In this document: positions 1,137-51,510 of the stretch, one piece after another
Layout of the letters: each line of letters begins with the position of its first letter
Position numbering within the stretch: position 1 is the first letter of the stretch
Source: Bacillota bacterium
Lineage (GTDB): Bacteria; Bacillota; JAAYKD01
Length of the DNA stretch: 64,000 nt
Direction: 5' to 3'
Assembly (NCBI GenBank): GCA_963666425.2
Contig: OY762825.2
Location: forward strand, 576,001-640,000
Made by a program: the position numbers and the translations under genes
Notes under the pieces: generated by a model
What the model was told of the DNA's origin: nothing
Seen by the model: only the letters and a program-made list of their open reading frames with translations
Database searches by the model: none

Positions 1137-1979
1137 ATGTATGATTTTTCAATTGGCGTGATGCTGGATTCTTTTCGCACCGGCATTGCCGAAGCACTGG
1201 ATCAGGCGGTCGCTGTTGGCGCGGAGGGGATCCAAGTCTACACAACCACCGGCGAGCTGTCGGCAGCTCATTTAACTCCCACGAAACGCAGAGAATTTTT
1301 ACGGCAGGTGCAGGGACACGGTTTGAGCATCGCTGCTCTTTGCGGTGATTTGGGTCAGGGATTTGGTGATGCGCAAAAAAATCCTCAGCTGATCGAAGAT
1401 TCCAAACGGATTCTCGATCTGGCGAAGGACCTGGAAACCGATATTGTCACCACACACATCGGTGTTGTGCCAAACAATCCGCAGCACGCCCGATATCAAA
1501 TCATGCAGGAAGCTTGTTTTCAGCTCAGCCGCTATGCGGACAACCTACAGGCTCATTTCGCGATCGAAACTGGTCCGGAACCTGCTGCAGTCTTAAAAGA
1601 ATTCCTGGACAGTCTCAACTCCACCGGCGTGGCGGTCAATTTGGATCCCGCTAATTTTGTCATGGTGACCGGTGACGATCCGGTTGCCGCCGTTTATACC
1701 CTGCAGAAGTATATTGTGCATACGCACGCCAAAGACGGACGGCGTTTGAGAATCAAAGACCCCGAAAAAATCTATGGGATCCTGGCGGACAGCGATACCG
1801 CCGAACCGGATTTTATCGAACTGCCTCTGGGTGAAGGGGACGTTGATTTTGCCAATTACCTAAAAGCACTGCATGAAATTGGCTACCATGGTTTTTTGAC
1901 CGTGGAAAGAGAAGCCGGTGCCCATCCCGCCGAGGATATCGCCAAGGCGGTGGCATTTTTGCGGCGATGGCGGCGATAA
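1137..1979 (+). CDS. Sugar phosphate isomerase/epimerase (AP-endonuclease-2 TIM barrel)
   Basis: Motifs FAIETGPE, NLDPAN, HTHAKD, LPLGEGDVDF, TVERE. Confidence 0.85.
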   Translation: MYDFSIGVMLDSFRTGIAEALDQAVAVGAEGIQVYTTTGELSAAHLTPTKRREFLRQVQGHGLSIAALCGDLGQGFGDAQKNPQLIEDSKRILDLAKDLETDIVTTHIGVVPNNPQHARYQIMQEACFQLSRYADNLQAHFAIETGPEPAAVLKEFLDSLNSTGVAVNLDPANFVMVTGDDPVAAVYTLQKYIVHTHAKDGRRLRIKDPEKIYGILADSDTAEPDFIELPLGEGDVDFANYLKALHEIGYHGFLTVEREAGAHPAEDIAKAVAFLRRWRR

Positions 1980-1991
1980 CGAGCAATTGAA

Positions 1992-2031
1992 AAAAGGGCT
2001 GTAGCGAAACGAAAATCGCTACAGCCCTTTT
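1992..2031. terminator. Bidirectional intrinsic terminator
   Basis: aaaagggctgtagcga-aacgaaaa-tcgctacagccctttt, with A/T tails on both sides. Confidence 0.8.
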
Positions 2032-2112
2032 CTTCAATTAGTATAACTTCCGCCGGAAGACGCATCAGTACTTTCGCGTTCGATACTGAGTAACATTGTA
2101 TTAAGTACTTTT

Positions 2113-3935
2113 CGGAACAGTCAAGACTGTTCCCTACATTTAGGCAATGTATATTACTGTTTTGTTAGGGTATTATTGCGCATTTATATACCATTGCAAT
2201 GCGATTATAATCATTCTGCAAGGTAGGGAATGGTCTTGACCATTCCGCGTAACCGAGCGATGTGAGATTGTTATGCATAGAAATTTGTTTATTTTTCGGA
2301 ACAGTCAAGACTGTTCCCTACATTTAGGCAATGCTTATTACTGTTTTGTTAGGGTATTATTGCGCATTTATATACTATTGCAATGCGATTATAATCATTT
2401 TGCAAGGTAGGGAATGGTCTTGACCATTCCGCGTAACCGAGCGATGTGAGATTGTTATGCATAGAAATTTGTTTACTTTTCGGAACAGTCAAGACTGTTC
2501 CCTACATTTAGGCAATACTTATTACTGTTTTGTTAGGGTATTATTGCACATTTATATACCATTGCAATGCGATTATAATCATTTTGCAAGGTAGGGAATG
2601 GTCTTGACCATTCCGCGTAACCGAGCGATGTGAGATTGTTATGCATAGAAATTTGTTTACTTTTCGGAACAGTCAAGACTGTTCCCTACATTTAGGCAAT
2701 GCTTATTACTGTTTTGTTAGGGTATTATTGCGCATTTATATACCATTGCAATGCGATTATAATCATTTTGCAAGGTAGAGAATGGTCTTGACCATTCCGC
2801 GTAACCGAGCGATGTGAGATTGTTATGCATAGAAATTTGTTTACTTTTCGGAACAGTCAAGACTGTTCCCTACATTTAGGCAATGTATATTACTGTTTTG
2901 TTAGGGTATTATTGCGCATTTATATACCATTGCAATGCGATTATAATCCTTCTGCAAGGTAGGGAATGGTCTTGACCATTCCGCGTAACCGAGCGATGTG
3001 AGATTGTTATGCATAGAAATTTGTTTACTTTTCGGAACAGTCAAGACTGTTCCCTACATTTAGGCAATGCTTATTACTGTTTTGTTAGGGTATTATTGCA
3101 CATTTATATACCATTGCAATGTATATTACTGTTTTGTTAGGATATTATTGCGCATTTATATACCATTGCAATGCGATTATAATCATTTTGCAAGGTAGGG
3201 AATGGTCTTGACCATTCCGCGTAACCGAGCGATGTGAGATTGTTATGCATAGAAATTTGTTTGCTTTTCGGAACAGTCAAGACTGTTCCCTACATTTAGG
3301 CAATGTATATTACTGTTTTGTTAGGGTATTATTGCGCATTTATATACCATTGCAATGTATATTACTGTTTTGTTAGGGTATTATTGCGCATTTATATACC
3401 ATTGCAATGCGATTATAATCATTTTGCAAGGTAGGGAATGGTCTTGACCATTCCGCGTAACCGAGCGATGTGAGATTGTTATGCATAGAAATTTGTTTAC
3501 TTTTCGGAACAGTCAAGACTGTTCCCTACATTTAGGCAATGTATATTACTGTTTTGTTAGGGTATTACTGCGCATTTATATACCATTGCAATGCGATTAT
3601 AATCATTTTGCATGGTAGGGAATGGTCTTGACCATTCCGCGTAACCGAGCGATGTGAGATTGTTATGCATAGAAATTTGTTTACTTTTCGGAACAGTCAA
3701 GACTGTTCCCTACATTTAGGCAATGCTTATTACTGTTTTGTTAGGGTATTATTGCGCATTTATATACTATTGCAATGCGATTATAATCCTTCTGCAAGGT
3801 AGAGAATGGTCTTGACCATTCCGCGTAACCGAGCGATGTGAGATTGTTATACATAGAAATTTGTTTACTTTTCGGAACAGTCAAGACTGTTCCCTACATT
3901 TAGGCAATGTATATTACTTTTTTGTTAGGGTATTA
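2113..3935. repeat. Tandem array of alternating inverted GTAG-type REP palindromes (BIME/REPIN-like), 184-bp unit
   Basis: CGGAACAGTCAAGACTGTTCCCTAC starts at 2113, 2297, 2481, 2665, 2849, 3033, 3269, 3505, 3689, 3873; GTAGGGAATGGTCTTGACCATTCCG starts at 2223, 2407, 2591, 2775, 2959, 3195, 3431, 3615, 3799; linkers of 85 and 49 nt; two units are 236 bp; lies between convergent genes. Confidence 0.93.
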
Positions 3936-4019
3936 TGGTTTTTGTACATCTAGTGCTGTTAATTTTGCGCGGCGCTTTTTAAACTGTTTTGCGAGAGCCG
4001 CTTTTTCATTTTACTGTAT

Positions 4020-5108
4020 TTACTTCTTCTGCAGGAAAGGCGGCACAGAAAAATCAGCGCCGGACTTGGCCTGATTCTGTTTCATCGCCATGGAAATGGT
4101 CCGCTCATCCCGCATCTCTGGTTTCTTGTTCGGATCAAAATAGGGAGACCGCTGTTTCTGGTCGAAACCGGTTGCTACCACGGCCAGACGCACTTGGTCT
4201 TTTAATTTTTCATCAATCGAAGTACCCCAGATGATCTGGGCATCCGGATCGACCGCCTGGGTAATGATATCGGCCGCTTCTGTCGTTTCATATAAGGTTA
4301 AATCCGGTCCGCCGGCAATGTTCAATAAAACACCGCGGGCTCCTTCGATCGATGTTTCCAGCAAAGGACTGGAAATCGCCATTTTGGCAGCCTGTACCGC
4401 TCTGCCTTCACCCTGACCGTAGCCAATACCCATGATGGCAGTCCCGGAATCACGCATAATCGATTTGACATCGGCAAAGTCCAAATTGACAATACCGGGA
4501 ACCACAATTAAGTCGGAGATGCCCTGCACACCCTGACGCAGGATTTCATCCACCATTTTAAAGGCATCCAGTAAGGTCGTCTTTTTATCAATCACTTGCA
4601 TCAGGCGATCATTGGGTATGGTGATCAGAGCATCCACTTTTTCCCGCAGTCTGCTGATACCAAGATCAGCCTGCGCCGCACGGCGGCGACCCTCAAAAGC
4701 GAAGGGTTTGGTGACGACGGAAATGGTCAGCGCACCCATTTCTTTGGCAACTTCTGCTACAACGGCTGCCGCGCCTGTGCCGGTGCCGCCGCCCATGCCG
4801 GCCGTGACAAAGACCATATCAGCGCCTTTCAGGACGCGAGCCAGTTCATCCCGGCTCTCCTCGGCAGCTTTCAAACCAATGTCCGGATTGCCGCCCGCTC
4901 CCTGACCGCGGGTTAATTTCATGCCAATCTGCAGCTTTTGATCTGCCAAAGAATGCTCTAAAACAACACCGTCTGTATTGACAGCGATGAATTCTACCCC
5001 TTTTAAGCCGGCTGCGATCATGCGGTCTACCGCATTACTACCGCCGCCGCCGACGCCAATGACTTTAATTTTTGTGATTTCCTGCATATCAGATTGAACT
5101 TCCAACAC
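4020..5108 (-). CDS. ftsZ: Cell division GTPase FtsZ
   Basis: [13 protein letters not shown], tubulin signature [16 protein letters not shown]-terminal VPPFL; start set to GTG 5108 after GAGGAG. Confidence 0.99.
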
Positions 5109-5225
5109 GAGCTTCACTCCTCTTCTTAATTCTTACTGCCGATGACATGACATTTTTATCGCTTGAATGACCTGATTTTCTCTGTTCGTATTGAAAACCG
5201 GCTTACGGAAAGCCTTTGCCTAAAA

Positions 5226-5251
5226 TTTCGTCCTGCCAATAAGGGATTCCT
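5226..5251 (-). promoter_or_regulatory. Sigma-H-like promoter upstream of ftsZ
   Basis: AGGA-N18-GAAA on the minus strand. Confidence 0.55.
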
Positions 5252-5352
5252 CCCTGCTCTCTGAAAGAATATCCTGTAGAAACAGCAGCCGTTTTTTGAC
5301 AGCAAGCTTTCCAGCGTTCAGATGCTTGTTTTCCAACCTGCTTTGGCAGTGG

Positions 5353-6075
5353 TCAATCCGGGATAAAGACTGGTTTTCCTTCCTGCAGGATGATCGTGCC
5401 TTTCTGGTTTTTCTCACGCATCAGGAGAATAATGGTGCGCATACTGTTCAGTTGTTCGGTACTGACTTCGCTGCCTTGCACCTGTATGCGATAATTATCC
5501 ACCGAAACAATGGTAAGATAGCGGGCATCGGTCAGCTTGATTTCCGCTACCAAATTTTTAAACGTATCACTCATTTGCTCGATCAGCAGTTTAACCCGGT
5601 TGATATCCGTATCAGCCGGAATGCGGTCACCTACACCGAGGAAAGGCAGTTCGATGCCGGTCAGCAGAATCACCTGTTCGTTCGCCGGTAATTGCGTTGC
5701 AATCTCTAAGGCAATCCCTTCATCTGAAATTGCCAGGTAATTGCCATGATAGGGAATATAGGCCATAATTTGACGTTCTGTCAGCGTGATCTCCATTTTA
5801 TTGGGCAATAGATAGCGAATCTGCGCTTCGGCAATCCAAGGTGTCTTGGTCAGTTTCGCTTCCAACGGCTGTAAACGTAAGAAAATCAAAGGCTTGCCAA
5901 TCGGTTCGTCCAACACATAGTAAATCTGATTGACGTCTGCTTTGACGTTGCCGACAATCGTCAATTCACTCAAACGAAAGATCGGCAGCAGCCAAAGAGA
6001 AAGCAGGAACAGCAAAGGCAGCAGCAAAAGGAATCGGATTTTCCAACTAATCTTCAGCGATTTGAGCCGTTTCAA
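5353..6075 (-). CDS. divIB: Cell division protein FtsQ/DivIB
   Basis: Single N-terminal TM, POTRA-like region (PWIAEAQIRYLLPNKMEITLTER), position between ddl and ftsZ; TTG start after AAGGAGG. Confidence 0.85.
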   Translation of the reverse strand: MKRLKSLKISWKIRFLLLLPLLFLLSLWLLPIFRLSELTIVGNVKADVNQIYYVLDEPIGKPLIFLRLQPLEAKLTKTPWIAEAQIRYLLPNKMEITLTERQIMAYIPYHGNYLAISDEGIALEIATQLPANEQVILLTGIELPFLGVGDRIPADTDINRVKLLIEQMSDTFKNLVAEIKLTDARYLTIVSVDNYRIQVQGSEVSTEQLNSMRTIILLMREKNQKGTIILQEGKPVFIPD

Positions 6076-6115
6076 TTCGTTGCCTCCTTTCCTTGCCTGC
6101 AACGACCTGACGATC

Positions 6116-7042
6116 TTACGCTTCCAAAGCCAACTGAATCAATTTCTCCACCAAATCCGCATAGGAATAGCCAATTGCTTTGGCTGCATCCGGCACCAGA
6201 CTGGTACCCGTCATACCGGGCAGTGTATTCACTTCCAGCAGCCAGCAGCGGCCTTCCTTATCTGCAAAGAAATCCGACCGGGAAATACCGCGGCAGCCCA
6301 AGGCACGGTGCGCTTTCACCGCCATCGCTTTGGCTTCCGCTTCCACTGCCGGCGCGATGCGGGCGGGTATTAAATGCTTGCTCATATTGACCGCGTACTT
6401 CGCTTCATAATCATAAAATTCATTGGAAGAAACAATTTCAATACAGGGTAGAACGGTCAGTTCGTGATTTCCCCAGATGGCCACGGTCAGCTCCGTACCG
6501 CTGATCGCTTCTTCAATTAAGACTTCGGTATCATACTGTAAAGCCAGGCGCAGAGCCGGCAGTAAGTCTTGCCGCTCTTTCACCAAGGTCAGACCAATGG
6601 AGGAGCCTTGGGAAGCCGGTTTCACGATCAAATGATCTACGCCGGCAAAGACAGTCTCTACTTGTTCATGAATGCGATCCAAATCTGTATATTGATCAAC
6701 AGGCAGCCATTTTGGCGTTCTGATCTGTTCAAATTCAAAGACTTTCTTCGACATGATTTTATTCATCGCCAAAGCGCTGGCTAAAACACCGGAACCAACA
6801 TAAGGAATTCCCATGATTTCCAATAAACCTTGCACAGTACCGTCTTCTCCGAATTTTCCGTGCGAAGCAATAAATGCCACGTCGACCGGCATGGCCTGCA
6901 GTGCGCCGGGCAACTGCGCGTCAATTTCCATTTGATAAGCGCGATACCCTCGCGACTGCAGCGCTGCGATGATCCCCGCAGCTGTTTTTAAGGAGATTTC
7001 TCTTTCCGATGATCTGCCCACTAAGACTGCAACATTTTTCAT
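6116..7042 (-). CDS. ddl: D-alanine--D-alanine ligase
   Basis: SSEREISL, HGKFGEDG, GSSIG, YDYEAKY, LEVNTLPGMT. Confidence 0.97.
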   Translation of the reverse strand: MKNVAVLVGRSSEREISLKTAAGIIAALQSRGYRAYQMEIDAQLPGALQAMPVDVAFIASHGKFGEDGTVQGLLEIMGIPYVGSGVLASALAMNKIMSKKVFEFEQIRTPKWLPVDQYTDLDRIHEQVETVFAGVDHLIVKPASQGSSIGLTLVKERQDLLPALRLALQYDTEVLIEEAISGTELTVAIWGNHELTVLPCIEIVSSNEFYDYEAKYAVNMSKHLIPARIAPAVEAEAKAMAVKAHRALGCRGISRSDFFADKEGRCWLLEVNTLPGMTGTSLVPDAAKAIGYSYADLVEKLIQLALEA

Positions 7043-8466
7043 AATTTGATTTCCCCTTCTTCATTTTCTCCGCCGGCAGGAAGTAGATTTTGCAATTCCT
7101 GCAATAAGGGAATGCCAAATTGATTGACATCGCCGGCTCCCATTAAAATCACCATATCGCCAGGCCGTAAGAGCGGCGCCAACTGCTGCGGTAATTGCGT
7201 TTTATCCGCGATATAAATGACTTGTCTTTGCGGATCCCATTCATGCACTGCATTGACCAACATTTCACCATTAACGCCAGGTTCCGGTCTTTTTTCCCTG
7301 GAAGCAAAAATATCGGTCAGAATGACCAGATCGGCGTCAAAAAAAGCTTTGCCGAAATCATTTCTGAGATTTCTGGTGCGCGAGTAAAGATGCGGCTGAA
7401 AAACAACCAGCAATCGCTTGGGCTGAAAGGTTCTGGCCGCCGCCAGGGCTGCTTTGATTTCCGTAGGGTGATGGGAATAGTCTTCGATGACGGTGATCTC
7501 CCCTACACTGCCAATCTTTTCAAAACGCCGTTTGGAACCGCCGAAAGCAGCCAAACCCTGCTGAATCTCGGCCATGGTCAGACCCAAGTGCAAGCAAATA
7601 CCCACGACAGCCAAAGCATTTTCTACATTGTGCCTGCCGGGCACCTGCAGCTCGATCTCACCCAAAACAGCATGATCCAGCACGACCTGAAATTGACAGT
7701 GCCCATTCTGCAAAACGACCTTGGCTGCCTGCAGACGCGCATCGGCGGCAAAGCCAAAGCTCAGATAGGAACAAGTCAGCTGCGGTATGATTTTGCGTAC
7801 GCTGTCGGAATCGATGCCCAGCATGGCAAAACCATCTGCCGGCAATTGATTCAAATAGGTCACGAAAGCCTGTTCAATATGGTAGAGCGATTTATAATAG
7901 TCCAGATGATCGGCTTCAATGTTGGTGATCACAGCATATTTGTAGCTCAGGTTGAGAAAACTGCCATCGCTTTCATCTACTTCGGCGACCAGATAGCGTC
8001 CTTCTCCCCAGCAGGCATTGCCGCCGATCTGCGCCAACTCGCCGCCCAGGATCGCGGCAGGCTCTTTGCCGGCACTGAGCAGGACCGTTGTCAGCATGGA
8101 GCTGGTGGTTGTTTTGCCATGCGCACCAGCAACGGTGATGCTTTCTTTTTCCGCCATCAGCACATTCAGCATTTTGGAACGATGCCAAATTGGGATTCTC
8201 CGTCTCTCGGCTTCTTCCACTTCCGCATTTTCATATTTTATGGCTGATGAAACCACGACCAACTCCGCATCACCCAATTGTTCTGCTTTATGACCGCAGT
8301 AAACCTTGGCACCCAAGCGGCGTAAATCTTCTGTGATATGAGATTCATTTTCATCCGAACCGGAGACTGTCATGCCGCGTCCCAATAAAATACGCGCCAG
8401 GGCACTCATCCCGATCCCACCGATGGCGATAAAATGGACTTTTTTATATTGGCCCAAATTTTCCAT
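7039..8466 (-). CDS. murC: UDP-N-acetylmuramate--L-alanine ligase
   Basis: GGIGMSALA, GAHGKTTT, EVDESDGSF, DYSHHPTEI, FQPHLYSRT; start set to MENLGQ. Confidence 0.97.
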   Translation of the reverse strand: MENLGQYKKVHFIAIGGIGMSALARILLGRGMTVSGSDENESHITEDLRRLGAKVYCGHKAEQLGDAELVVVSSAIKYENAEVEEAERRRIPIWHRSKMLNVLMAEKESITVAGAHGKTTTSSMLTTVLLSAGKEPAAILGGELAQIGGNACWGEGRYLVAEVDESDGSFLNLSYKYAVITNIEADHLDYYKSLYHIEQAFVTYLNQLPADGFAMLGIDSDSVRKIIPQLTCSYLSFGFAADARLQAAKVVLQNGHCQFQVVLDHAVLGEIELQVPGRHNVENALAVVGICLHLGLTMAEIQQGLAAFGGSKRRFEKIGSVGEITVIEDYSHHPTEIKAALAAARTFQPKRLLVVFQPHLYSRTRNLRNDFGKAFFDADLVILTDIFASREKRPEPGVNGEMLVNAVHEWDPQRQVIYIADKTQLPQQLAPLLRPGDMVILMGAGDVNQFGIPLLQELQNLLPAGGENEEGEIKL

Positions 8467-8575
8467 ATAAAACACCTTTCCCTCACAGCGCAGGCTGTTT
8501 TCTGTCAATCCGATCGATCGCCGGCTTCCCACTTGCCGGGATAGCGGCGTGCTTGCTTGCTGCGGTCGGTTTTCT

Positions 8576-9685
8576 TTATTTCTGTTTTATCGCGATTTGA
8601 CAGGCTAAGTCGGCAAATTGCCTGGTCGCATTCGGTTTTGCCATGGCTAAGGCAGCCTGATGCATCCGCTGCGATTTTTCATCGTCGAACAAAATCTGGT
8701 TGATTGTCTGCAGCAACAGCGTTGGGGTTAAATCCTTTTCCCGAATCATCATGCCGGCGCCTTCATTTTCAATCGCCTTGGCATTGTATTCCTGGTGATT
8801 ATCCGCTACATGGGGTGAGGGGATATAAATAGCGGGAATACCGACCAGATTGATTTCTGCAATCATACCGCCGGAACGGGAGATGATCAGATCGGCCGCC
8901 TTCAGACCGGCTGCCATATCGAACAAATAAGGCAGCAAATGCAGGTTTTTATGCTGCAAGTAACCGAGCGCGTTTAGTTTCGCTGAAATCTCGGCAAAAT
9001 GCGCTTTGCCCGTGGCAAAAATAATCTGCTGACCGCTCTGGGATAAGAAATCGGGCAGCACCGCCAAAACGGCTTCATTGATTGGCTCCGCTCCGCGGCT
9101 GCCGCCGACCACCAGCAAAGTTTTCAGTTTTGGATTTAGCTGCAGACGCCGGATTGCCTCTTCTCTGCCGGTTGCCATGATTTCCGGTCTGACCGGATTA
9201 CCGATCACGTATTGCGGCTTATTGCCGGGAAAATAACGGCTTGATTCAGGGTATGAGAGTGCGATGGCCGTCACAAATCGGGCTAACAGACGGTTGGTCA
9301 TACTGGGCAGCGCATTCTGCTCATGGATTAAGGTCGGGATTCTCATCAGGGCGGCCTGCAGAACCACAGGCCCGGCAACATAGCCGCCGGTACCAACCAC
9401 CACATCCGGTCGGAATTCCTTCAGGTAAGCATGCGCTTGAAAGAAACCGCTGGCTGCTGTGACAATTGTTTTTAAGGTATCCAAAGAAATCTTACGCTGA
9501 AAACCGCGGGAAGAAATCACAGAAAATGGGATCCCTTCTTGGGGAACCAGTTCTGATTCCATTCCTCTTTGCGTACCAAGATATAAAACCTGAAGAGGTT
9601 CTGGCCTCGCTTGTAATTCCTTGATTAAAGCAATGGCCGGATTGATATGTCCGCCCGTCCCACCGCCGGTCACAACCAGTCGCAT
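8576..9685 (-). CDS. murG: Lipid II GlcNAc transferase MurG
   Basis: GGGTGGHINP, GTGGYV, HEQNA, GNPVR, GGSRGA, HQEYNA. Confidence 0.98.
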   Translation of the reverse strand: MRLVVTGGGTGGHINPAIALIKELQARPEPLQVLYLGTQRGMESELVPQEGIPFSVISSRGFQRKISLDTLKTIVTAASGFFQAHAYLKEFRPDVVVGTGGYVAGPVVLQAALMRIPTLIHEQNALPSMTNRLLARFVTAIALSYPESSRYFPGNKPQYVIGNPVRPEIMATGREEAIRRLQLNPKLKTLLVVGGSRGAEPINEAVLAVLPDFLSQSGQQIIFATGKAHFAEISAKLNALGYLQHKNLHLLPYLFDMAAGLKAADLIISRSGGMIAEINLVGIPAIYIPSPHVADNHQEYNAKAIENEGAGMMIREKDLTPTLLLQTINQILFDDEKSQRMHQAALAMAKPNATRQFADLACQIAIKQK

Positions 9686-9706
9686 GACAACACATCCTTT
9701 CCGACA

Positions 9707-10813
9707 CTAAGATGCACTTGGTTTGGCGCGGGAGGCATTCAGCATCATCCCCACGGCAATCAGTGACATGACCAAAGAAGATCCACCCGCACTGATAAAC
9801 GGCAGCGTGATCCCTGTTGCAGGAATGGAGGAGGTAACCACCGCCATATTGACAATTGCCTGCAGACAAATCATGGAAGTAAAGCCGATCGCTAAAAAAG
9901 CGGCAAATAGATCGTCTGTTTTGCGGGAAATGCGATAACCGCGCCAAAGAAAGGCAACGAAGAGCATAATCAGGATGCTAGCGCCGAGCAAGCCCATTTC
10001 TTCCGCGACAATGGCAAAAATAAAATCGCTCATGGCTTCCGGCAGATAACCGTACTTCTGCCGGCTTTGGCCATAACCCAAGCCGACCAGCTTGCCGGAA
10101 GCGATGGCGTATAACGACTGAATCACTTGCCAGCCATGTCCGGATGGATCTTTCCAGGGATCGAGAAACGTCTTGATTCGGTCCAGACGGTATTCTTCAC
10201 CAACCGCCAGATAAACCAAGCCTGCTCCGCCGCTCAGACCGGCTAAAATCGTATAAATCCAAGGCAAGCCCGCGATGAACATCATGATTGCTGCCGTACC
10301 GATCACAATCAGCATGGTACTGTAATCCGGTTGCTTCAGAATAAAAACACATGGGATCAAAATCAATACGGCGCAGTAAGCCACGTCTTTCAATTTGCGC
10401 AAATTACCTTGTATCTCACTGAATTTTTTAGCCAGCAGGATGACAATCGCCATTTTTGCTGCTTCGGACGGCATAAACGTAGTAAAACCGAGGTTTAGCC
10501 AACGGGTTGCTCCGTTGCGGTTAATGGCCAGAGCGGGAATATACAACGCAGCCAGGAGCAGCAAACCAAAAATGTAGAAAGGCATTGCCCCTTTTTTAAA
10601 CCAATCCAAAGGAAGCAAAGCAGTAACGAACATGACAGCAAATCCCATGATGGCCCATTTGACCTGATTCAGCGCGAAATAACTGCTGTCTACACCCAAC
10701 TGCGGTGCTGTCACTGAGCTAGAGGAGTAAACCATGATCAAGCCAAAACCCACCAACATCGAAACGGTCAGAAACAACCAGATATCCGGTAAACGCCTTT
10801 TATATCCAGCCAC
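9707..10813 (-). CDS. ftsW: SEDS family protein FtsW/SpoVE
   Basis: GLIMVYSSS, NGATRW, PSE..K, QPD, DFIFAIVAEEMG, GITLPFISAGGSS. Confidence 0.95.
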   Translation of the reverse strand: MAGYKRRLPDIWLFLTVSMLVGFGLIMVYSSSSVTAPQLGVDSSYFALNQVKWAIMGFAVMFVTALLPLDWFKKGAMPFYIFGLLLLAALYIPALAINRNGATRWLNLGFTTFMPSEAAKMAIVILLAKKFSEIQGNLRKLKDVAYCAVLILIPCVFILKQPDYSTMLIVIGTAAIMMFIAGLPWIYTILAGLSGGAGLVYLAVGEEYRLDRIKTFLDPWKDPSGHGWQVIQSLYAIASGKLVGLGYGQSRQKYGYLPEAMSDFIFAIVAEEMGLLGASILIMLFVAFLWRGYRISRKTDDLFAAFLAIGFTSMICLQAIVNMAVVTSSIPATGITLPFISAGGSSLVMSLIAVGMMLNASRAKPSAS

Positions 10814-10822
10814 TGTTCGACC

Positions 10823-12178
10823 TCATTTCCTGGTGACAGCATCCATAAACGATTGACCTCTGACCTCAAAGCTGGGATACATATCCCAACTGGCGCAGGC
10901 CGGCGACAATAAGACACAATCGCCTGTCTCGCTTAATTTGCGGGACTGTTCCACCGCTTCTTCCATATCATTGACCATCGTTATGCTGTGAAAATCCACT
11001 GCTGACAGGGCCTGCCGGATCCGCTCTTTGGTTTGGCCCAACAGAATCACTGCCTTGCAGTGCTGTTTAATACTTTGGGCAAATTCCGTAAAATCCTGTC
11101 CTCTGTCCAAACCGCCGGCAATCAGAATAATCGGCTCGCTGGGTAAACTCAAAGCTACCAAGGCAGCCTGTGAATTGGTCGCTTTGGAATCGTTGATATA
11201 GAGGACTCCGTTCAGCCGCGCTACAATTTGGAAACGATGCGCTACGCCTTGAAAACTGCGTAAACCTTTACGGATAGCATCGTACGATGCTCCTGCTGCA
11301 TAAGCAGTCAGAGCAGCAGCCATGGCATTCTGATAATTATGCGCATAGCCGATCCCCAATTCTTTTAAAGGTAAAATTGCTTCGGTAACCCCTTTGATGC
11401 GGAACATCAGCAGATCATTTTCCAGCCAGGCTCCTTCTTCCTGCGGCTGCAGATGGCTGAAAGTTAGCTGATGCGCCTTGATTTTGGGTGACAGCGACAT
11501 GACTTCCGCATTTTCCGCATTGAGAACCGCCCAATCTTCCGCAGTCTGATTGAGAAAAAGATGTGATTTTGCTTCCAGATAATTCTCGGCCGTATGGTGC
11601 CAGTCGCGATGCGTATTGAAGATGTTGAGCAGGGTGGCGACTTTGGGACGAAAATCCAGCACATCATTCAGCTGAAAACTGGAGAGTTCCACCACCACAA
11701 TATGACTTTCATCCAGACCATCCACCTCTTCGCTGAGCGGAACGCCAATATTGCCTGCGACATGCACCTTGGCTCTGTCCTGGCGCAGAATTTCACCGAC
11801 CCAGGCGGTCGTGGTTGTTTTGCCGTTGGAACCCGTAATACAAACCAGCGGCGCTTTGGTAACCTGCCAAGCCAGCTCTACCTCACTGACCACCGGAATC
11901 CCTTTGGCTCTGGCAGCTTGTAAAAACGGAATATCATAAGGGATCCCCGGATTTTTGACGATCAAATCGAGTCCCTGATCGAGCAGTTCCATCGGATGCT
12001 GCTCCAAAATAATCTCTACCGGCAACCCGGCCAATGCTTCCACGTCTTTTTCCACCTTGCTCAGCTTGGCAGAATCGTTGGCGATCACTACGGCACCATG
12101 CTTGAGCAAAACATGGATGGAAGCCACCCCGCTGCGGGCCAGCCCCAAAACAAGTACCTTTTTCCCTTGTAATTCCAT
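10823..12178 (-). CDS. murD: UDP-N-acetylmuramoyl-L-alanine--D-glutamate ligase
   Basis: GLARSG, TGSNGKTTT, ELSSFQL, NDSKATN, LLSPACASWD. Confidence 0.98.
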   Translation of the reverse strand: MELQGKKVLVLGLARSGVASIHVLLKHGAVVIANDSAKLSKVEKDVEALAGLPVEIILEQHPMELLDQGLDLIVKNPGIPYDIPFLQAARAKGIPVVSEVELAWQVTKAPLVCITGSNGKTTTTAWVGEILRQDRAKVHVAGNIGVPLSEEVDGLDESHIVVVELSSFQLNDVLDFRPKVATLLNIFNTHRDWHHTAENYLEAKSHLFLNQTAEDWAVLNAENAEVMSLSPKIKAHQLTFSHLQPQEEGAWLENDLLMFRIKGVTEAILPLKELGIGYAHNYQNAMAAALTAYAAGASYDAIRKGLRSFQGVAHRFQIVARLNGVLYINDSKATNSQAALVALSLPSEPIILIAGGLDRGQDFTEFAQSIKQHCKAVILLGQTKERIRQALSAVDFHSITMVNDMEEAVEQSRKLSETGDCVLLSPACASWDMYPSFEVRGQSFMDAVTRK

Positions 12179-12190
12179 ATGAATTCCCCC

Positions 12191-13150
12191 CTATGCGATG
12201 AATAACCAAGCGCCTGTCAAGGCAAAAAACAAGCCGAAAGCCCAGAAAACAAAAACGATTTTCCACTCACTCCAACCGCACAATTCAAAATGATGATGAA
12301 TCGGACTCATTTTAAACAAACGTTTGCCTTTGGTTGCTTTAAAATAAAGCACCTGGATGATGGTAGAAAAAATATCGACAATAAACACCATACCGACCCA
12401 AAGCATCAAAGTTTCTATTTTCAGCAGCAGCGCCATGGCTGCCAGCGCCGCGCCTAAGCCCAGCGAGCCGGTGTCGCCCATAAAAATCCGCGCCGGGTGC
12501 AGGTTAAACAATAAGAAACCGGCTAAAGCGCCAATCAGAGCTGCGCAAAAAGCAGCCAGATCGGTTTGCTGCTGCAGCAGCGCAACAAAAAAACAAAACA
12601 GGGTGGCGATCATGGTCTGACCGCTGCATAATCCGTCCACACCATCGATGATGTTGACGGCATTGCTGAAAAACACCAAATAGAGCAGCGCCAGCAGCCA
12701 ATAGAAAGCGCCCAGCGGCAGCTGCCAATGCAGGATGGGAAGCGCAAGTTCTGTCGTTAATCCCTTACCGGCCAGCAGCCAACAGAAAAGCGCTGCCAGA
12801 CTGAATTGACCAATCAATTTCGCCCTGGCCGATAATCCCTCCGGATTTTTCAAAGCGGACTTAATATAATCATCCGCAAAACCTAAGATACCATGGCCAA
12901 ACACAAGAAGCAGCAAGACACCAATGGCTCTGGTCCATTGACCGGCATACAGCAGACCGGCCATCAGGCCAAGATAAATAATGAATCCGCCCATCGTGGG
13001 AGTACCGGTTTTTATATAGTGACTCTGCAGCCCTTCCTGACGGATACTCTGACCGAATTTTAAACGATGCAGCAAGGGTATCAGCAGAGGGCCGGTAACA
13101 GCCGCTGCTGCTAAGGCAATCAGCATCACGACCAGATAACGGTTAACCAT
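12191..13150 (-). CDS. mraY: Phospho-N-acetylmuramoyl-pentapeptide transferase
   Basis: GTPTMGG, DDYIK, NAVNIIDGVDG, FMGDTGS, PIHHHFEL. Confidence 0.98.
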   Translation of the reverse strand: MVNRYLVVMLIALAAAAVTGPLLIPLLHRLKFGQSIRQEGLQSHYIKTGTPTMGGFIIYLGLMAGLLYAGQWTRAIGVLLLLVFGHGILGFADDYIKSALKNPEGLSARAKLIGQFSLAALFCWLLAGKGLTTELALPILHWQLPLGAFYWLLALLYLVFFSNAVNIIDGVDGLCSGQTMIATLFCFFVALLQQQTDLAAFCAALIGALAGFLLFNLHPARIFMGDTGSLGLGAALAAMALLLKIETLMLWVGMVFIVDIFSTIIQVLYFKATKGKRLFKMSPIHHHFELCGWSEWKIVFVFWAFGLFFALTGAWLFIA

Positions 13151-14543
13151 TGACTTCACCCCAGTTTTGCAGCATTTGCTCTGCCACTTCTTCCAAAGCC
13201 AGACTGCGCGAACCTTTGATCAAAAGAATTGCGTGCTGCGGCACCTGCTGCAGCACAGCGGCTGCCATGGCTTGATTATCGGCGCAGAAAATGACGCGTT
13301 CCTGCGGCATGCCCTCTGCCAGAGCGGCTTCAGCCAAAGCCGTTGCCAGGCTGCCCCGGACAAATAGGTAATCGTAATGCTCTGCAGCCAAACGTCGGCC
13401 GATGATTTGATGTTCCTCTACTTCCTGTTCACCCAATTCCCGCATATCTGCCAGCACAGCCACCGTGGAGCGATCGGCTCGTACTTCTGCCATCAAATCC
13501 AGCGAGACCTGCATGGATTTCGGGCTGGCGTTATAGGAATCATTGATCAGCAGCCGGTCGCCGCCCAAATGCCGGATACTGCCGCGCTGATCAGCAGGTT
13601 GGACGTGGCTGAGCCCCAAAGCAATTTCTGCCGGAGTCAGCCCGTTGAGATAACCGATGGCTGCGGCAAGGCCGGCGTTTTCCACCATATGACGCCCCGG
13701 CAAAGGAATGGTTGCTGTCACTTTTTGCTGATTGGGAAAACGCAGCGTAAATTTAGAGCCGTATAAGCCAAGACTGATCACTTCTGAAACCGCCAGATCG
13801 GCTTCTTCGGAAAAACCATAGGTATAGCATTTTCCGCTCAGCTTTTCCAATAAGAATTCTTTCCAAGGTTCGTCCCAGCGCAGCAAAGCAATGCCGCTGC
13901 CGGTCTTCAATCCATCAAAAATTTCTCGTTTGGCAGTTGCAATGGCTTGCAGGCTCCCCAGCCGTTCCAGATGAACGCCCAAAACATTGGTAATGGCGGC
14001 AAAATCCGGCGGAGCAATGGCAGTCAGATGGGCAATTTCGCCCAACCCCTGCATGCCCATTTCCAGAACCGCGATCTGATGCTGCGCGTTCAGCTGATAA
14101 AGCGTGATCGGCAGGCCTGTTTCGGTATTCAGGTTGCCTTGGGTTTTTAAAACGACATATTTTTCCGCCAAAACGGCAGCGATCATATCCTTACTGCTGG
14201 TCTTGCCAACACTGCCGGTAATGGCTACTACCTTGACGGGATGCTGCTCCAGACAATATCTACCCAGGCGAGCCATGGCTTCGATGCAGTCGTCTACGAT
14301 AATGGCCGATACATCATCCGGTAATTCCGTTTCCTCTGTCAGGGCGGCAGCGGCTCCGGCCGCCAAGGCCTGTGCGATGTAGCAGTTGCCGTCTACCCTT
14401 TCTCCTCGCAGAGCAATAAACAAAGCGCCGTCTTCTGACCGACGGCTGTCGGTTATAATTGAAGTGACGATTTTATCTTGATGCATTCCCCGGATCGTTC
14501 CCTGAACGACTTGAGCAATTTCACCTACTGTCATCCCAGGCAT
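13143..14543 (-). CDS. murF: UDP-N-acetylmuramoyl-tripeptide--D-Ala-D-Ala ligase
   Basis: TDSRR, ITGSVGKTSSKD, LEMGM, NDSYNASP, DMRELG, KGSR. Confidence 0.97.
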   Translation of the reverse strand: MPGMTVGEIAQVVQGTIRGMHQDKIVTSIITDSRRSEDGALFIALRGERVDGNCYIAQALAAGAAAALTEETELPDDVSAIIVDDCIEAMARLGRYCLEQHPVKVVAITGSVGKTSSKDMIAAVLAEKYVVLKTQGNLNTETGLPITLYQLNAQHQIAVLEMGMQGLGEIAHLTAIAPPDFAAITNVLGVHLERLGSLQAIATAKREIFDGLKTGSGIALLRWDEPWKEFLLEKLSGKCYTYGFSEEADLAVSEVISLGLYGSKFTLRFPNQQKVTATIPLPGRHMVENAGLAAAIGYLNGLTPAEIALGLSHVQPADQRGSIRHLGGDRLLINDSYNASPKSMQVSLDLMAEVRADRSTVAVLADMRELGEQEVEEHQIIGRRLAAEHYDYLFVRGSLATALAEAALAEGMPQERVIFCADNQAMAAAVLQQVPQHAILLIKGSRSLALEEVAEQMLQNWGEVNG

Positions 14544-14589
14544 TGCTTCCACTCCTTCTGCAACAGATTTGAATTGCGTATCAAGATAG

Positions 14590-14614
14590 ATTCGTTCTTT
14601 TGTGACAAATTCCT
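14590..14614 (-). promoter_or_regulatory. Sigma-H-like promoter upstream of murF
   Basis: AAAGGAattt-N17-GAAT, a close match to the AGGA/GAAT consensus. Confidence 0.65.
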
Positions 14615-14819
14615 TTTAGCAAGATGTATCCTCCGCAAAAGCGGTCGCTCAAGACATAATCCCGTCAATGTTGACAGGCCTCTGCAAGAACCGCTGCCTT
14701 TTTTGCTGTAATGGCTTGCTTTCTGAACGCAGACAATCAGTTGTTCGTTTGCAGTAATTCGAAAGAACGGCCGAGCGCTATGATAGTTGCCGTAGGATGG
14801 CATTTTCTCCTGAGACTGC

Positions 14820-14848
14820 AAAACCGCCACTCGAATATCGAGGGCGGT
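14820..14848 (-). terminator. Probable terminator after ftsL
   Basis: accgccctcga-tat-tcgagtggcggtttt on the minus strand. Confidence 0.55.
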
Positions 14849-14893
14849 ATGATCCTGCTTTCTTAGTACACAGACCTGTCCGGTTTGGTTTGA

Positions 14894-15316
14894 TCAGTCC
14901 GACAAATTAACTGACAGGCTTGGCAGCTTAAGATACTGATCCATACTGGGTTTGTGAAACCCCAGCCCGATTGCTCTTTGTTCGATATTTTCCAAAGAGG
15001 AAGCCTGGTAAATTTTGATGCGCAGCATCTCGTTATTATTCCGCAGCGTGGTGATTTCGCTCTGTTCTGCTTCGATTGCCTGTGAAACACTGTATAAATA
15101 AGCCGACCGTGTGGAGGAGATGAAGCCTGCCAGCACAAAAGCACAAATAAACAAGATAATCGATTTGGCTAAAGGCAGATTGACCGTTTCCTGCAGCGGT
15201 TTGGGCTTTTGCTGGGGAAAAGCAATTACATTTTCTTTTCTAAACGGTTGCTGATCAATCAGTTCTTCCTGCTGAATCTCCGGTATTTCGATGATGGCCC
15301 TTTTTGCTGATGCCAT
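14894..15316 (-). CDS. ftsL: FtsL-like septum formation initiator
   Basis: One TM followed by coiled coil and SLENIEQRAIGLGF; directly downstream of rsmH. Confidence 0.75.
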   Translation of the reverse strand: MASAKRAIIEIPEIQQEELIDQQPFRKENVIAFPQQKPKPLQETVNLPLAKSIILFICAFVLAGFISSTRSAYLYSVSQAIEAEQSEITTLRNNNEMLRIKIYQASSLENIEQRAIGLGFHKPSMDQYLKLPSLSVNLSD

Positions 15317-15317
15317 T

Positions 15318-16295
15318 TTATCTTTCCTCCTTGCAATCAATAATGGGTGTCGCTAATCTTCTGGCGAGGCGCAGCTTGGCGCTGTGCGATCTTGGGTTCT
15401 CCTGCAGCTCTTCTGCCTTAGGTAAAATCGGCTTGTTGTTGACCAATTCCAACATCGGTTTGCGTCCGCAGACACAGACCGGCAGTTTGGCTGGGCAGAT
15501 ACAGGGATTGACCAATTCCCGAAATAAATCTTTGACAATTCTGTCTTCCAGAGAGTGAAACGTAATCACTGCGATCACACCCTGCGGCTGCAGCGCGTCG
15601 ATCGCTTTTTTCAAACCGATTTTCAGTGCATTCAATTCATCATTAACGGCAATGCGTAAAGCCTGGAAGATTCTGCGCGTCTCGTTACCATCCTCGCGGC
15701 GGACCGCTGACGGTACCGCTGCTTTGATGATCTCCACCAATTGGTCCGAGCTTTCGATCGGCGTTTTTTGCCGTTCCTCTACGATGAATTGCGCAATTCT
15801 GGCACTCCAGCGTTCTTCGCCATAATCGTAAAAGATTTTTCTCAATTCCGCTTCTGAAGTATTCGCCAACAGCATAGCTGCCGTGAGGCTAGAGGATGGG
15901 TCCATGCGCATATCGAGCGGCGCATTTTCCCGAAAAGTAAAACCACGTTCTTTGACATCGAGCTGCGGTGAAGAAACGCCTAAATCGAATAAAACACCAT
16001 CCAGCAAAGTAATTTGATTCTCCTGCAAAACACGGTCCAGGTTCTTAAAGTTGGCTTGCAGCGGGCGAAACAGGTTGCCATATTGCCGCAAACGTTCTCC
16101 TGCGGCTTCCAGTGCGGTAGGGTCCTGATCCAAACCAATGACGAGACCGTTTCCCTGCAGCTGCTCTAATATGGCTTCGCTGTGACCGCCGCCACCCAAG
16201 GTGCAATCGAGATAAATTCCACCGGGATGGGGCGATAATCCTGACAATACTTCCTGAAGTAAAACACTGTTGTGCCGGAATTGCTGCAAAATCAT
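15318..16295 (-). CDS. rsmH: 16S rRNA m4C1402 methyltransferase
   Basis: HNSVLL, DCTLGGGGHS, DLGVSSPQLD, PLDMRM, FQALRIAVN, TFHSLEDR, NPRSHSAKLR. Confidence 0.98.
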   Translation of the reverse strand: MILQQFRHNSVLLQEVLSGLSPHPGGIYLDCTLGGGGHSEAILEQLQGNGLVIGLDQDPTALEAAGERLRQYGNLFRPLQANFKNLDRVLQENQITLLDGVLFDLGVSSPQLDVKERGFTFRENAPLDMRMDPSSSLTAAMLLANTSEAELRKIFYDYGEERWSARIAQFIVEERQKTPIESSDQLVEIIKAAVPSAVRREDGNETRRIFQALRIAVNDELNALKIGLKKAIDALQPQGVIAVITFHSLEDRIVKDLFRELVNPCICPAKLPVCVCGRKPMLELVNNKPILPKAEELQENPRSHSAKLRLARRLATPIIDCKEER

Positions 16296-16314
16296 CTCTC
16301 CTCCCTGTTGTTGA

Positions 16315-16749
16315 TTAGATCGAAATCAGTCTCTCCAAATGTTCTGCGGTTTGTTCGTAAACCGAAACCGCCTGACTTTGGTAATGCTCCCACTCCGGCA
16401 GACTCCAAATCTCCACGCGGGATGAGACACCCAAAAGAACGGCTTCTTTTTCTAAATTTGCATGTTTTTTTAAGGTGGGCGGCAAGAGAATTCTGCCTTG
16501 TCGATCCGGTTCGCATTCAACGGCGCCGGAAAAGAAAACACGGCTGAAGGCGCGCGCATCCGAACTTGTTATCGGCAAGCTGCGCAGTTTATCCTCGATT
16601 TTTACCCATTCCGCCATCGGATAGAGGAAAATCGCTTTGTCCAGTCCTAAGGTGGCGATGAAATGATTGCCCAATCCCTCGCGGAAGCGGGAGGGTATAA
16701 TCAGGCGCGATTTCTCATCCAATGCATGCTGATAGGTCCCTAAAAACAC
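16315..16749 (-). CDS. mraZ: Transcriptional regulator MraZ
   Basis: MFLGTYQHALDEKSRLIIP and DRQGRILLP (two DxxxR motifs). Confidence 0.97.
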   Translation of the reverse strand: MFLGTYQHALDEKSRLIIPSRFREGLGNHFIATLGLDKAIFLYPMAEWVKIEDKLRSLPITSSDARAFSRVFFSGAVECEPDRQGRILLPPTLKKHANLEKEAVLLGVSSRVEIWSLPEWEHYQSQAVSVYEQTAEHLERLISI

Positions 16750-34716: not shown

Positions 34717-36048
34717 CTATTTTAGGGCTGCGATATCCAGAGCCAACGCAGTAAAAATGGCGGATCCCAAGGGTAAGCAACGCTCGTCGATATCAAAATC
34801 GATGGTGTGCGCACCACCGGCAGCGGATGCATTGGCATCTTCGCCTTTGTTCAAACTGGCGCCGATCCCCATATAGGTAACTTGACCGCCGTTTTGTTTG
34901 ACGCGCTCCATCATATAGGTGAAATCCTCACTGCCGCCCAGTTTGCCTTCGGATGGAGAAACTTGGTCGAAGCAGCCTAGTTCCGTTGCGACTCTAATCA
35001 CTCTCTGCATCAATTCCGGGCTGCTGCTGCCGCTTTTGGCGGAGCCCATTTGTTTTAACTCCAATTCGCAATCATACATCATCGCCGAACCCTGCAGTAC
35101 CTGCATGGCACGACCGTACATATATTGATCGAGTTCGCTCGTATCGCCTCTGGTTTCAATCGCCATTACCGCATGATCCGGTATCACATTTCTGCCGGTG
35201 CCAGCTTGCAGGCGACCGACATTGATCCGCGTGGCTCCCGCTTTGTGCCGGGAAATGGCGTATAGGTTAAGCGCCGCATTGGCAGCAGCTAAAAGCGCGT
35301 TTTTGCCGCCGTCCGGATTGCCGCCTGCATGTGCAGCCTTACCGGTGAAAATGGCATCAAATTTACTGGTAGCCAGCATGCCAGCCTGCCCCGGCAGCAA
35401 ACTGCCAACCGGTGAACTGCTGCCGAGATGCGCTCCCAGCATATATTCTACATCATCCAGAATACCGGTTGCCGTGAGTGGTCTAGCCCCACGGCCCCCC
35501 TCTTCTGCGGGTTGAAAAACCAATTTGATCGTACCTTTAAACTGATTACGGTATTGCATAAGCAGTTGAGCAACGCCTAAGCCGATGCTGGCATGACCGT
35601 CATGACCACAGGAATGCATCATCTTGGCATTAACGGAAGCAAATCCATCTCTGCCGGGACGCCGTTCCTTTGTCTGCGGTTCATTCATTTCCACGGCATC
35701 AATATCAAAACGCATACCGATGATGGGGCCTTCCCCATTCTTCAAGATTCCAACCACACCGGTAAATCCACCACGCATCTTCTCAGCGTATTCCAGCACA
35801 GCTCCCTGGGAGAGAGCGCGCTGGTATTGCTGTTCCAATTCCTCTTCGGTAAGCAAGCCCATGCGTTCTTCGGCGCAGATCACTTCTCTGCCCAGTTTCA
35901 CTTCATAGCCAAGCTGAGCCAGTTCACGCGCAATTAGGGAAGCTGTGCGGAATTCTGTCCAGGCCGATTCGGCATAGTGGTGGAAATCACGCCGCAAAGC
36001 CGTTTGATGCTCCTGCAGTGCGAATGCTGCTGCTACTAAATTCTGCAT
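34717..36048 (-). CDS. M20 amidohydrolase, AbgA-like
   Basis: RRDFHHYAESAWTEFRT, RFDIDA, MHSCGHDGH, QPAEEG, GSEDF; start moved to MQNLV after AAGGAG. Confidence 0.88.
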   Translation of the reverse strand: MQNLVAAAFALQEHQTALRRDFHHYAESAWTEFRTASLIARELAQLGYEVKLGREVICAEERMGLLTEEELEQQYQRALSQGAVLEYAEKMRGGFTGVVGILKNGEGPIIGMRFDIDAVEMNEPQTKERRPGRDGFASVNAKMMHSCGHDGHASIGLGVAQLLMQYRNQFKGTIKLVFQPAEEGGRGARPLTATGILDDVEYMLGAHLGSSSPVGSLLPGQAGMLATSKFDAIFTGKAAHAGGNPDGGKNALLAAANAALNLYAISRHKAGATRINVGRLQAGTGRNVIPDHAVMAIETRGDTSELDQYMYGRAMQVLQGSAMMYDCELELKQMGSAKSGSSSPELMQRVIRVATELGCFDQVSPSEGKLGGSEDFTYMMERVKQNGGQVTYMGIGASLNKGEDANASAAGGAHTIDFDIDERCLPLGSAIFTALALDIAALK

Positions 36049-36059
36049 TGTTACGCTCC

Positions 36060-51435: not shown

Positions 51436-51469
51436 GCGGCTTCTCCTCTCCTCAATGCAGTACAGATGT

Positions 51470-51501
51470 GAAAAAACGCCGCGTAAAAAGATACGCGGCG
51501 T
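51470..51501 (-). terminator. Terminator after the tRNA
   Basis: acgccgcgta-tcttt-tacgcggcgttttttt on the minus strand. Confidence 0.8.
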
Positions 51502-51510
51502 AGCATAAAC

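Follow-up and report, generated by a model that had tools for sequence, protein, structure and literature searches.

A tandem array of alternating GTAG hairpins behind ftsZ in a Bacillota bacterium: a probable BIME-2-like cluster of a RAYT-linked family

Introduction

In a 64,000-nt stretch of DNA from a Bacillota bacterium (GCA_963666425.2, contig OY762825.2, positions 576,001 to 640,000; hereafter the window), the cell-division gene ftsZ is followed by a tandem array in which two 25-nt, GTAG-footed hairpins alternate in opposite orientation. What kind of element is this array, and how did it come to lie at the end of the division and cell wall (dcw) cluster? Its design recalls repetitive extragenic palindromes (REPs) and their clusters, the bacterial interspersed mosaic elements (BIMEs). 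The definition of the BIMEs of E. coli includes binding of IHF, DNA gyrase and DNA polymerase I and effects on mRNA stability and attenuation. We argue, with a probability of roughly 0.8, that the array is a BIME-2-like REP cluster of a GTAG REP family linked to REP-associated tyrosine transposases (RAYTs), and that a hairpin doublet of this family was amplified in place at ftsZ.

Results

Architecture of the array

The array is about 1.8 kb long and comprises about 9.5 units of 184 bp, each made of a hairpin, an inner linker, a second hairpin and an outer linker (25 + 49 + 25 + 85 = 184; Table 1). Tandem Repeats Finder (TRF) recovers this period with 96-97% matches, as 5.5 copies at 97% (2106-3121) and 3.2 copies at 96% (3352-3936). 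A search of the whole window with GTAGGGAAYRGTCTTGACYRTTCCG, allowing up to three mismatches, gave 19 matches, all within 2113-3897, whereas none of 100 dinucleotide shuffles of the window gave any match. The orientation of the GTAG-footed 25-mers alternates strictly across all 19 copies. The ten copies on the minus strand carry a CA/TG stem variant and are all exact; the nine on the plus strand carry a TG/CA variant, seven of them exactly and two with a single mismatch (G5A, giving GTAGAGAA).

The hairpin copies are nearly invariant (2 variant bases in 19 copies), and most variant sites in the unit alignment fall in the linkers. Units differ in their combinations of variants and come in two lengths, since 52-bp duplications within the outer linker of two units give linkers of 137 nt and units of 236 bp. 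A short direct repeat, GCAATG, bounds the duplication, which is the signature of a replication slip. The G+C content of the array is 36.4%, against 48.2% for the window. Neither the 49-nt nor the 85-nt linker has a homologue in the at least 128 loci fetched from other genomes (see below), where only hairpins of 24-28 nt match; the best match of the linkers to the rest of the window is an 11-nt word (E >= 0.48), and plasmid and phage collections yielded no match to the 184-bp unit. Open reading frames (ORFs) of 43-47 aa open in every unit on both strands (ATG on the plus strand, TTG on the minus strand; 2165-3884), and we treated them as by-products of the periodic sequence.

An earlier sequence-only reading of this stretch had described nine and ten copies of two 25-mers alternating in opposite orientation with a period of 184 bp; the same 19 sites were recovered here, and TRF agrees on the period. 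Its description of the linkers as fixed holds for most units but not for the two that carry the 52-bp duplications. Its view that the array was recently amplified fits the 96-97% identity of the units, although concerted evolution would look alike.

The hairpin family in other genomes

Scanning the genome collection with GTAGGGAANNGTCTTGACNNTTCC located the hairpin in at least 128 loci of other genomes, 48 of them with flanks of just ~300 nt, so that, as far as other genomes go, the lack of further copies that the sequence-only reading had named as a refuting condition does not apply. Among the matches listed, the carriers are nearly all metagenome-assembled genomes (MAGs) of Clostridia (Oscillospiraceae, Acutalibacteraceae, Ruminococcus, Gemmiger, Candidatus Fimenecus), joined by the complete chromosome of Chakrabartyella piscis, a Peptococcaceae MAG and one Chloroflexi MAG. 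Several sites occur per assembly, with at least seven on the Chakrabartyella piscis chromosome. The window as a whole gave no blastn match to the fetched loci at E <= 1e-10.

Like the array, the family is largely extragenic. Taking loci of 3 kb or longer, ORFs of at least 100 aa cover 84.6% of the sequence, yet 77 of 93 sites fall outside them. The neighbourhood within 400 nt of a hairpin holds 195 ORFs, of which the 150 scanned are unrelated housekeeping genes (aminoacyl-tRNA synthetases, metabolic enzymes and transporters, with one IS481-type integrase); none of these 150 matches TnpB or Y1_Tnp at 1e-4, and with such neighbours we rejected the end hairpin of an IS200/IS605 element as a candidate.

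The geometry of the array also recurs. Adjacent hairpin pairs within 300 nt of each other number 61: 37 inverted pairs with GTAG facing outward, 17 direct pairs and 7 that point inward. Gaps in the outward pairs are mostly 20-70 nt, and 28 of the 34 outward doublets with gaps of up to 100 nt pair two different stems, as the window doublet does. The 99-bp unit of the window (TG/CA hairpin, 49 nt, inverted CA/TG hairpin) is, on this sequence evidence, a typical doublet of the family. Tandem clusters with the hairpin were found elsewhere as well (L097, 44 bp x 4; L122, 126 bp x 5 at 67%; L128, 119 bp x 2.2), and the window array, with 19 hairpins, is by far the largest among the matches listed.

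Three further observations concern these loci. In L097 (368-543; Bacillota MAG contig WQUN01000217.1), four TG/CA hairpins in the same orientation, with a period of 44 bp, are followed by inverted CG-type copies. Beside the searched hairpin, L004, L037, L048, L050, L060, L085 and others carry many further GTAG-GGG...CTTG...CCC variants whose stems differ widely from it (G-rich or ACACGG ones among them), a hint that gut Clostridia have a more extensive GTAG REP super-family. Lastly, doublets of different assemblies in L021, L040, L090, L094 and L037 (Ruminococcus and Clostridia MAGs) have in common their hairpins, a similar spacer of ~29 nt and similar flanks; either the sites are orthologous or one mobile doublet has been copied.

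Folding and covariation of the stem

Stem positions 9-10 and 19-20 are the sole difference between the two window variants, and the two changes there are compensatory. All 19 copies are GTAG-footed stem-loops within the 20-40 nt range that characterizes REPs, and the stem is a perfect 9-bp helix. Folded as single-stranded DNA (ssDNA), each window hairpin reaches -7.2 kcal/mol, and exchanging arms between the variants weakens the fold to -2.7 and -1.1 kcal/mol. For the 99-nt doublet, the ssDNA structure of minimum energy is a single long hairpin (-18.4 kcal/mol, z -5.1), in which one covarying position forms a 2x2 internal loop and the other two G-T pairs; the alternative, two local hairpins, reaches -14.0 kcal/mol.

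Covariation extends to the family. Among the matches listed, 151 of 162 distinct sites keep both variable pairs Watson-Crick by way of four dinucleotide types (CG/CG in 117 sites, CA/TG in 14, TG/CA in 12 and GG/CC in 8), and the others have one G-T pair (7) or one mismatch (4). In an alignment of 57 rows, made up of 54 distinct locus variants with up to four substitutions and 3 window hairpins, the 9-bp stem pairs in 93.9% of cells, with double-sided changes at 6 of the 9 pairs; none of 500 shuffles reached the observed values, and sliding the partner left 22-52% pairing. Because the fetch pattern fixed the rest, solely the NN pairs and the relaxed-match variants test covariation freely. Since the covariation keeps pairing rather than sequence, it argues for a folded single strand and not for a duplex recognition site. 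Both the two compensatory base pairs and the selection on the hairpin that the sequence-only reading had drawn from them are borne out, the latter by the family covariation and the arm-swap energies.

RAYT-like genes beside the hairpin

We ran jackhmmer over 10,271 six-frame ORFs from the loci and the window and identified seven RAYT-like ORFs in six loci (L110, L007, L026, L051, L124, where the gene is split, and L015, where it is a fragment). The RAYT-like HUH/Y1 genes of L110, L007 and L124 have one hairpin 12-47 nt upstream and contain another, so a Y1/HUH gene flanked by the hairpin, as the sequence-only reading had envisaged, does occur in other genomes. The ORF in L110 encodes 159 aa, has the hairpin 17 nt upstream, matches NF047646 (the NCBIfam family REP-associated tyrosine transposase, REP_Tyr_transpos) with an E-value of 6.4e-19 and aligns with the E. 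coli TnpA-REP of solved structure, 4ER8 (E 9.7e-4), over the HUH and Y regions.

The motifs are NHIH, WQ and YIENNP in L110 and NHVH, WQ and YISTNP in L007. Quentin et al. 2018 (PMC6006769) give NH[IFV]H, WQ and YIxNNP as the motifs of TnpA-REP subclass 2.4, which corresponds to RAYT group 4 of Bertels et al. 2017 (PMC5581495). Because NHIH, WQ and YIENNP match the motifs listed there (PMC6006769), we assign the RAYT-like genes beside the hairpin, by motif, to subclass 2.4. In both L110 and L007 the hairpin within the ORF is inverted and in frame, where it encodes ERSRPFP, and double-foot REP forms were seen in L124, L015 and L063. In-frame REP insertions within the tnpA-REP gene and 'double-foot' REPs have both been described (PMC6006769), and the likeness to subclass 2.4 extends to the position of the in-frame REP between HUH and Y (PMC6006769).

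The clade is large, with 2793 proteins at E <= 1e-10. Among the matches listed, those with a name are called 'transposase' (records of Ruminococcus, Oscillospiraceae, Butyricicoccaceae, Clostridia and Bellilinea), 'hypothetical protein', 'putative transposase' or 'Transposase and inactivated derivatives' (JGI records), with a single 'RayT'. The REP-encoded peptide was found in 88 of the 120 best relatives, a figure inflated by a search seeded on shared five-residue words. In 15 of these 88 the peptide comes from the other orientation (GNGLDRS) and in one example it precedes the HUH motif. It is striking that the REP-encoded peptide is kept near-exactly at 50-60% overall protein identity. Taken together, the hairpin family appears to be spread through Clostridia and other Bacillota, with a subclass 2.4 RAYT as its predicted cognate enzyme.

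Genomic setting

The array is extragenic and sits between two convergent genes, ftsZ and a gene for a xylose-isomerase-like TIM barrel (Table 1). It ends 83 nt past the ftsZ stop codon and so lies behind ftsZ, as the sequence-only reading had it. Between the isomerase-like gene and the array is a strong hairpin with U-runs on both strands (as RNA, -34.3 and -35.2 kcal/mol; z -9.3 and -8.6), which looks like a shared bidirectional terminator of that gene and, across the array, of ftsZ. A consensus terminator scan missed this hairpin, probably owing to its loop length, and gave no terminator between the ftsZ stop codon and the array; the 150 nt from the stop codon to the first hairpin are no more stably folded than shuffled sequence (z -0.06).

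Table 1. Coordinates of the array, its parts and associated features (window positions, except for the RAYT-like genes, which are numbered within their own loci)
Feature	Position	Strand	Basis or remark
Whole tandem array	2106-3936		TRF, unit alignment
Leftmost REP, CA/TG variant, no partner on its left	2113-2137	-	25-mer search
Other nine CA/TG REPs (starts)	2297, 2481, 2665, 2849, 3033, 3269, 3505, 3689, 3873	-	25 nt each, exact
First TG/CA REP	2223-2247	+	25-mer search
Other TG/CA REPs (starts)	2407, 2591, 2775 (G5A), 2959, 3195, 3431, 3615, 3799 (G5A)	+	25 nt each
First 99-bp GTAG-outward doublet	2223-2321		REP, 49-nt linker, inverted REP
Further doublets	2407-2505, 2591-2689, 2775-2873, 2959-3057, 3195-3293, 3431-3529, 3615-3713, 3799-3897		
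Outer linker between doublets	2322-2406		85 nt, AT-rich, locus-specific
Extra 52-bp duplication within 85-nt linker	3064-3174		2.1 copies, TRF
Second 52-bp duplication	3300-3409		TRF
ftsZ, last dcw gene	4020-5117	-	TIGR00065, 426 bits vs cut-off 295
Convergent gene, xylose-isomerase-like TIM barrel	1137-1979		
Bidirectional terminator-like hairpin	1995-2031		just after gene 1137-1979; U-runs on both strands
RAYT-like gene, L110	342-821		
RAYT-like gene, L007	6084-6578		
RAYT-like gene, L124	108-460		

The dcw cluster runs from mraZ (16315-16749) through rsmH, Mur ligases, mraY, ftsW, murG, ddl and ftsQ to ftsZ. In this minus-strand region (4020-16749), Pfam matches reveal no ftsA between ftsQ (5353-6102) and ftsZ, no ftsI (penicillin-binding protein) in the interval from the small ORFs behind rsmH to the first Mur ligase, and three Mur-ligase genes only. 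The best named FtsZ relatives come from Symbiobacteriaceae MAGs (70% and 64% identity), followed by Desulfotomaculum-type and Peptococcaceae proteins (~62-64%), and others lie at 76-97% identity. These relatives support the Firmicute host proposed in the sequence-only reading and would place it in an uncultured lineage of Bacillota near Symbiobacteriaceae.

Domain scans of the window found no transposase, integrase, cas or RAYT domain, in line with the sequence-only reading, which had noted that a RAYT was missing there; the vicinity of the array holds no partition, replication or regulator gene. We rejected a CRISPR array (alternating repeat orientation, constant 'spacers' and no cas domain in the window) and an integron (constant spacers, no integrase domain in the window). 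Two oddities lie elsewhere on the minus strand. A pair of M20-peptidase-like ORFs (34717-36306 and 36060-37502, within 34717-37502) overlaps by ~250 nt and is either a frameshifted or split gene or the result of a wrongly extended start. At 50281-51585, a 412-aa ORF with a weak DNA-methylase match adjoins the sole tRNA gene (51514-51585), which it overlaps by a few bases on a crude ORF call.

Discussion

Relation to known REP clusters

We consider the hairpin family, the covariation of its stem, its extragenic sites, the matching doublet geometry and the RAYT-like link in other genomes to be established. BIME-2 elements are found as multiple copies in tandem, with good sequence conservation inside each locus (PMC3333891). 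Here, REPs and inverted REPs alternate with regular linkers, two subtypes are paired and the tandem copies are conserved, so the BIME-2 design is present, and the REP/BIME assignment of the sequence-only reading stands, with GTAG hairpins in a BIME/REPIN-like cluster whose family is RAYT-linked in other genomes. The building block is a REPIN-like 99-bp doublet of two GTAG-outward inverted hairpins with different stem subtypes. REPINs as described by Bertels and Rainey 2011 (PMC3116915) likewise join two inverted REPs through a spacer and can form a single long hairpin, as the window doublet can; they are thought to be mobilised by a single-copy RAYT (PMC3116915). In contrast to REPINs, which form dispersed populations within a genome (PMC3116915), the window has one visible locus with tandem copies.

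Like E. coli BIME-2 (PMC3333891), the array consists of GTAG-footed imperfect palindromes in alternating orientation, with two subtypes paired, is extragenic and has tandem copies conserved within the locus. In E. coli the RAYT acts in trans (PMC3333891); here, the RAYT link is known from other genomes. The differences are several. The window hairpin is unrelated in origin and has a perfect 9-bp stem, whereas in E. coli a 2-bp stem mismatch is essential for RAYT binding (PMC3333891). The array repeats every 184 bp and includes an outer linker of 85 nt resembling co-amplified local DNA, the host is a member of the Bacillota, and the associated RAYT clade is subclass 2.4 and not 2.2.

The array also resembles the GTAG REP clusters surveyed by Di Nocera, De Gregorio and Rocco 2013 (PMC3733652), in which dimers have their GTAG termini outside and partners lie 20-100 bp apart. 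Neither Firmicutes nor Clostridia are named in that survey (PMC3733652). Array-type architecture has been described for Proteobacteria (PMC3733652, PMC3333891), including the tandem reiteration of REP dimers together with flanking DNA (PMC3733652). Because BIME-2 tandem copies and REP-dimer reiteration are both published, the architecture is already in print, and the finding extends a known kind in taxonomy and in size without founding a new one. The accessible text of the E. coli BIME paper (PMC3333891) makes no mention of Firmicutes or Clostridia, and the accessible accounts of subclass 2.4 and group 4 do not single out a Clostridia RAYT branch (PMC6006769, PMC5581495). Our full-text literature searches returned no paper describing the hairpin sequence and only passing mentions of REP-associated tyrosine transposases in Firmicutes/Clostridia; the supplements of PMC6006769 may show Clostridia members.

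Weighing the alternatives

Several results weigh against a RAYT-linked REP cluster. The jackhmmer search gave no RAYT match in the window, and a RAYT-like ORF was found in just 6 of the at least 128 loci, a count tempered by the 48 short-flanked loci and by the fact that a REP need not adjoin a RAYT gene. The L110 ORF stays under curated cut-offs, at 68.3 against 80 bits for NF047646 and, weakly, 20.8 against 23 bits for PF01797 (Pfam Y1_Tnp), which aligns just partially with class 2 proteins (PMC6006769). The carrier genomes are not close relatives of the window organism (best protein identity 41%), and conservation of GTAG and most of the stem is by construction, as the fetch pattern fixed them. 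In the ~62 kb outside the array there is no further copy of the 25-mer (up to three mismatches) and no excess of GTAG/GTGG-footed hairpins (1 found, 1.2 expected). Both the amplification route and any effect of the array on the ftsZ mRNA 3' end are inferences.

Some of these results favour the alternative of an orphan minisatellite. The genome would then have neither a RAYT nor dispersed REPs, and a neutral array would have grown from a single relic doublet through nothing but slippage or unequal crossing-over. The lack of a RAYT in the window, the lack of further copies, hairpins at chance level and locus-specific linkers speak for it, and the 52-bp sub-duplications at microhomology show plain slippage at work. 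Still, it shares the sequence features of the REP cluster and differs from it just in the rest of the genome, and the absence of other copies in 62 kb fits a low-copy family and an orphan relic equally; for group 4 RAYTs, flanking 16-mers occur only ~14 times (PMC5581495). The near-invariant hairpins, with variation mostly in the linkers, speak against this alternative, although the contrast is weak because the units are not independent. We regard an orphan minisatellite as unlikely, if a serious contender. An array of small-RNA genes, each unit with its own promoter and a structured RNA containing the doublet, possibly antisense to ftsZ, would draw on a promoter-like TTTATA-17-TATAAT (10/12 matches) on the plus strand of the outer linker in all nine units. 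It lies just upstream of the plus-strand hairpin and would drive transcription toward ftsZ, in antisense; promoter-like sites in the region number 21, against 8.0 +/- 2.9 in shuffles, and the predicted RNA is strongly structured (z -5.8). But a single event in AT-rich DNA, copied nine times, accounts for all these sites, and no terminator-like site follows in any unit. Rfam likewise gave nothing in the array at gathering thresholds, and in E-value mode only chance matches far below threshold (SprD at best, with 26 against 100 bits, and mir-3202 on the terminator hairpin). Moreover, the linkers occur in no other locus and the hairpin alone is conserved, and this as a nuclease-linked DNA repeat, which makes such genes very improbable.

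The near-palindromic 20-mers could also seat dimeric proteins, and the array might then be a protein-binding site (for gyrase or a nucleoid protein, or centromere-like) serving chromosome structure at the end of the dcw cluster. We give this little credence, as no partition, replication or regulator gene is nearby and the covariation preserves pairing and not sequence. Short reads cope badly with 1.8-kb repeats of 96-97% identity, so that the copy number or order of the units could have been made by the assembler. Yet distinct variant combinations and two unit lengths are rare in collapsed or invented repeats, and the hairpins are attested independently in other genomes; an assembly artefact is scarcely credible.

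Proposed origin and possible role

If the array is a BIME-2-like cluster, one doublet may have landed, by RAYT action on ssDNA, between the ftsZ stop codon and the shared bidirectional terminator. In situ amplification of a 184-bp segment, consisting of the doublet and 85 nt of local DNA, would then have raised its number to about nine. Unequal recombination or replication slippage between hairpin copies probably drove this step. Another possibility is that a RAYT cut and rejoined the DNA at inverted REPs and linkers, a reaction that Ton-Hoang et al. 2012 showed in vitro for BIMEs of E. coli and put forward to explain their 'multiplication and amplification' (PMC3333891). A later slip at the GCAATG microhomology would account for the 52-bp duplications.

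Transcription of ftsZ probably continues into the array, since a strong terminator lies on its far side but none in front of it. From this layout, the stem-loops may then act as 3' exonuclease barriers or as attenuators of read-through, roles reported for E. coli REPs and BIMEs (cited in PMC3733652).

A bolder scenario, which we think rather improbable, makes the hairpin the travelling seed of a cross-phylum REP-RAYT unit. With a copy in frame inside the RAYT gene, hairpin and enzyme would travel from genome to genome as a pair, and this would account for the near-identical hairpins of many Clostridia families and of a Chloroflexi MAG. In the window one would see an end state near Symbiobacteriaceae, where an orphan doublet grew by amplification into 19 hairpins within the ftsZ 3' untranslated region and was kept for setting the 3' end and the stability of the last dcw transcript.

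Implications

REP and BIME biology rests almost wholly on Proteobacteria. The locus and its family present the same architecture in Bacillota, with a GTAG foot, a covarying stem, two-stem doublets and tandem clusters, and the family includes a RAYT gene that is flanked by the hairpin and hosts a copy of it. Such arrays break short-read assemblies and create spurious small ORFs, which annotators could call as repeated hypothetical proteins; they could also serve as strain markers. If it is true that the array shapes the 3' end of the ftsZ mRNA, a selfish repeat would have been recruited at a core cell-division operon.

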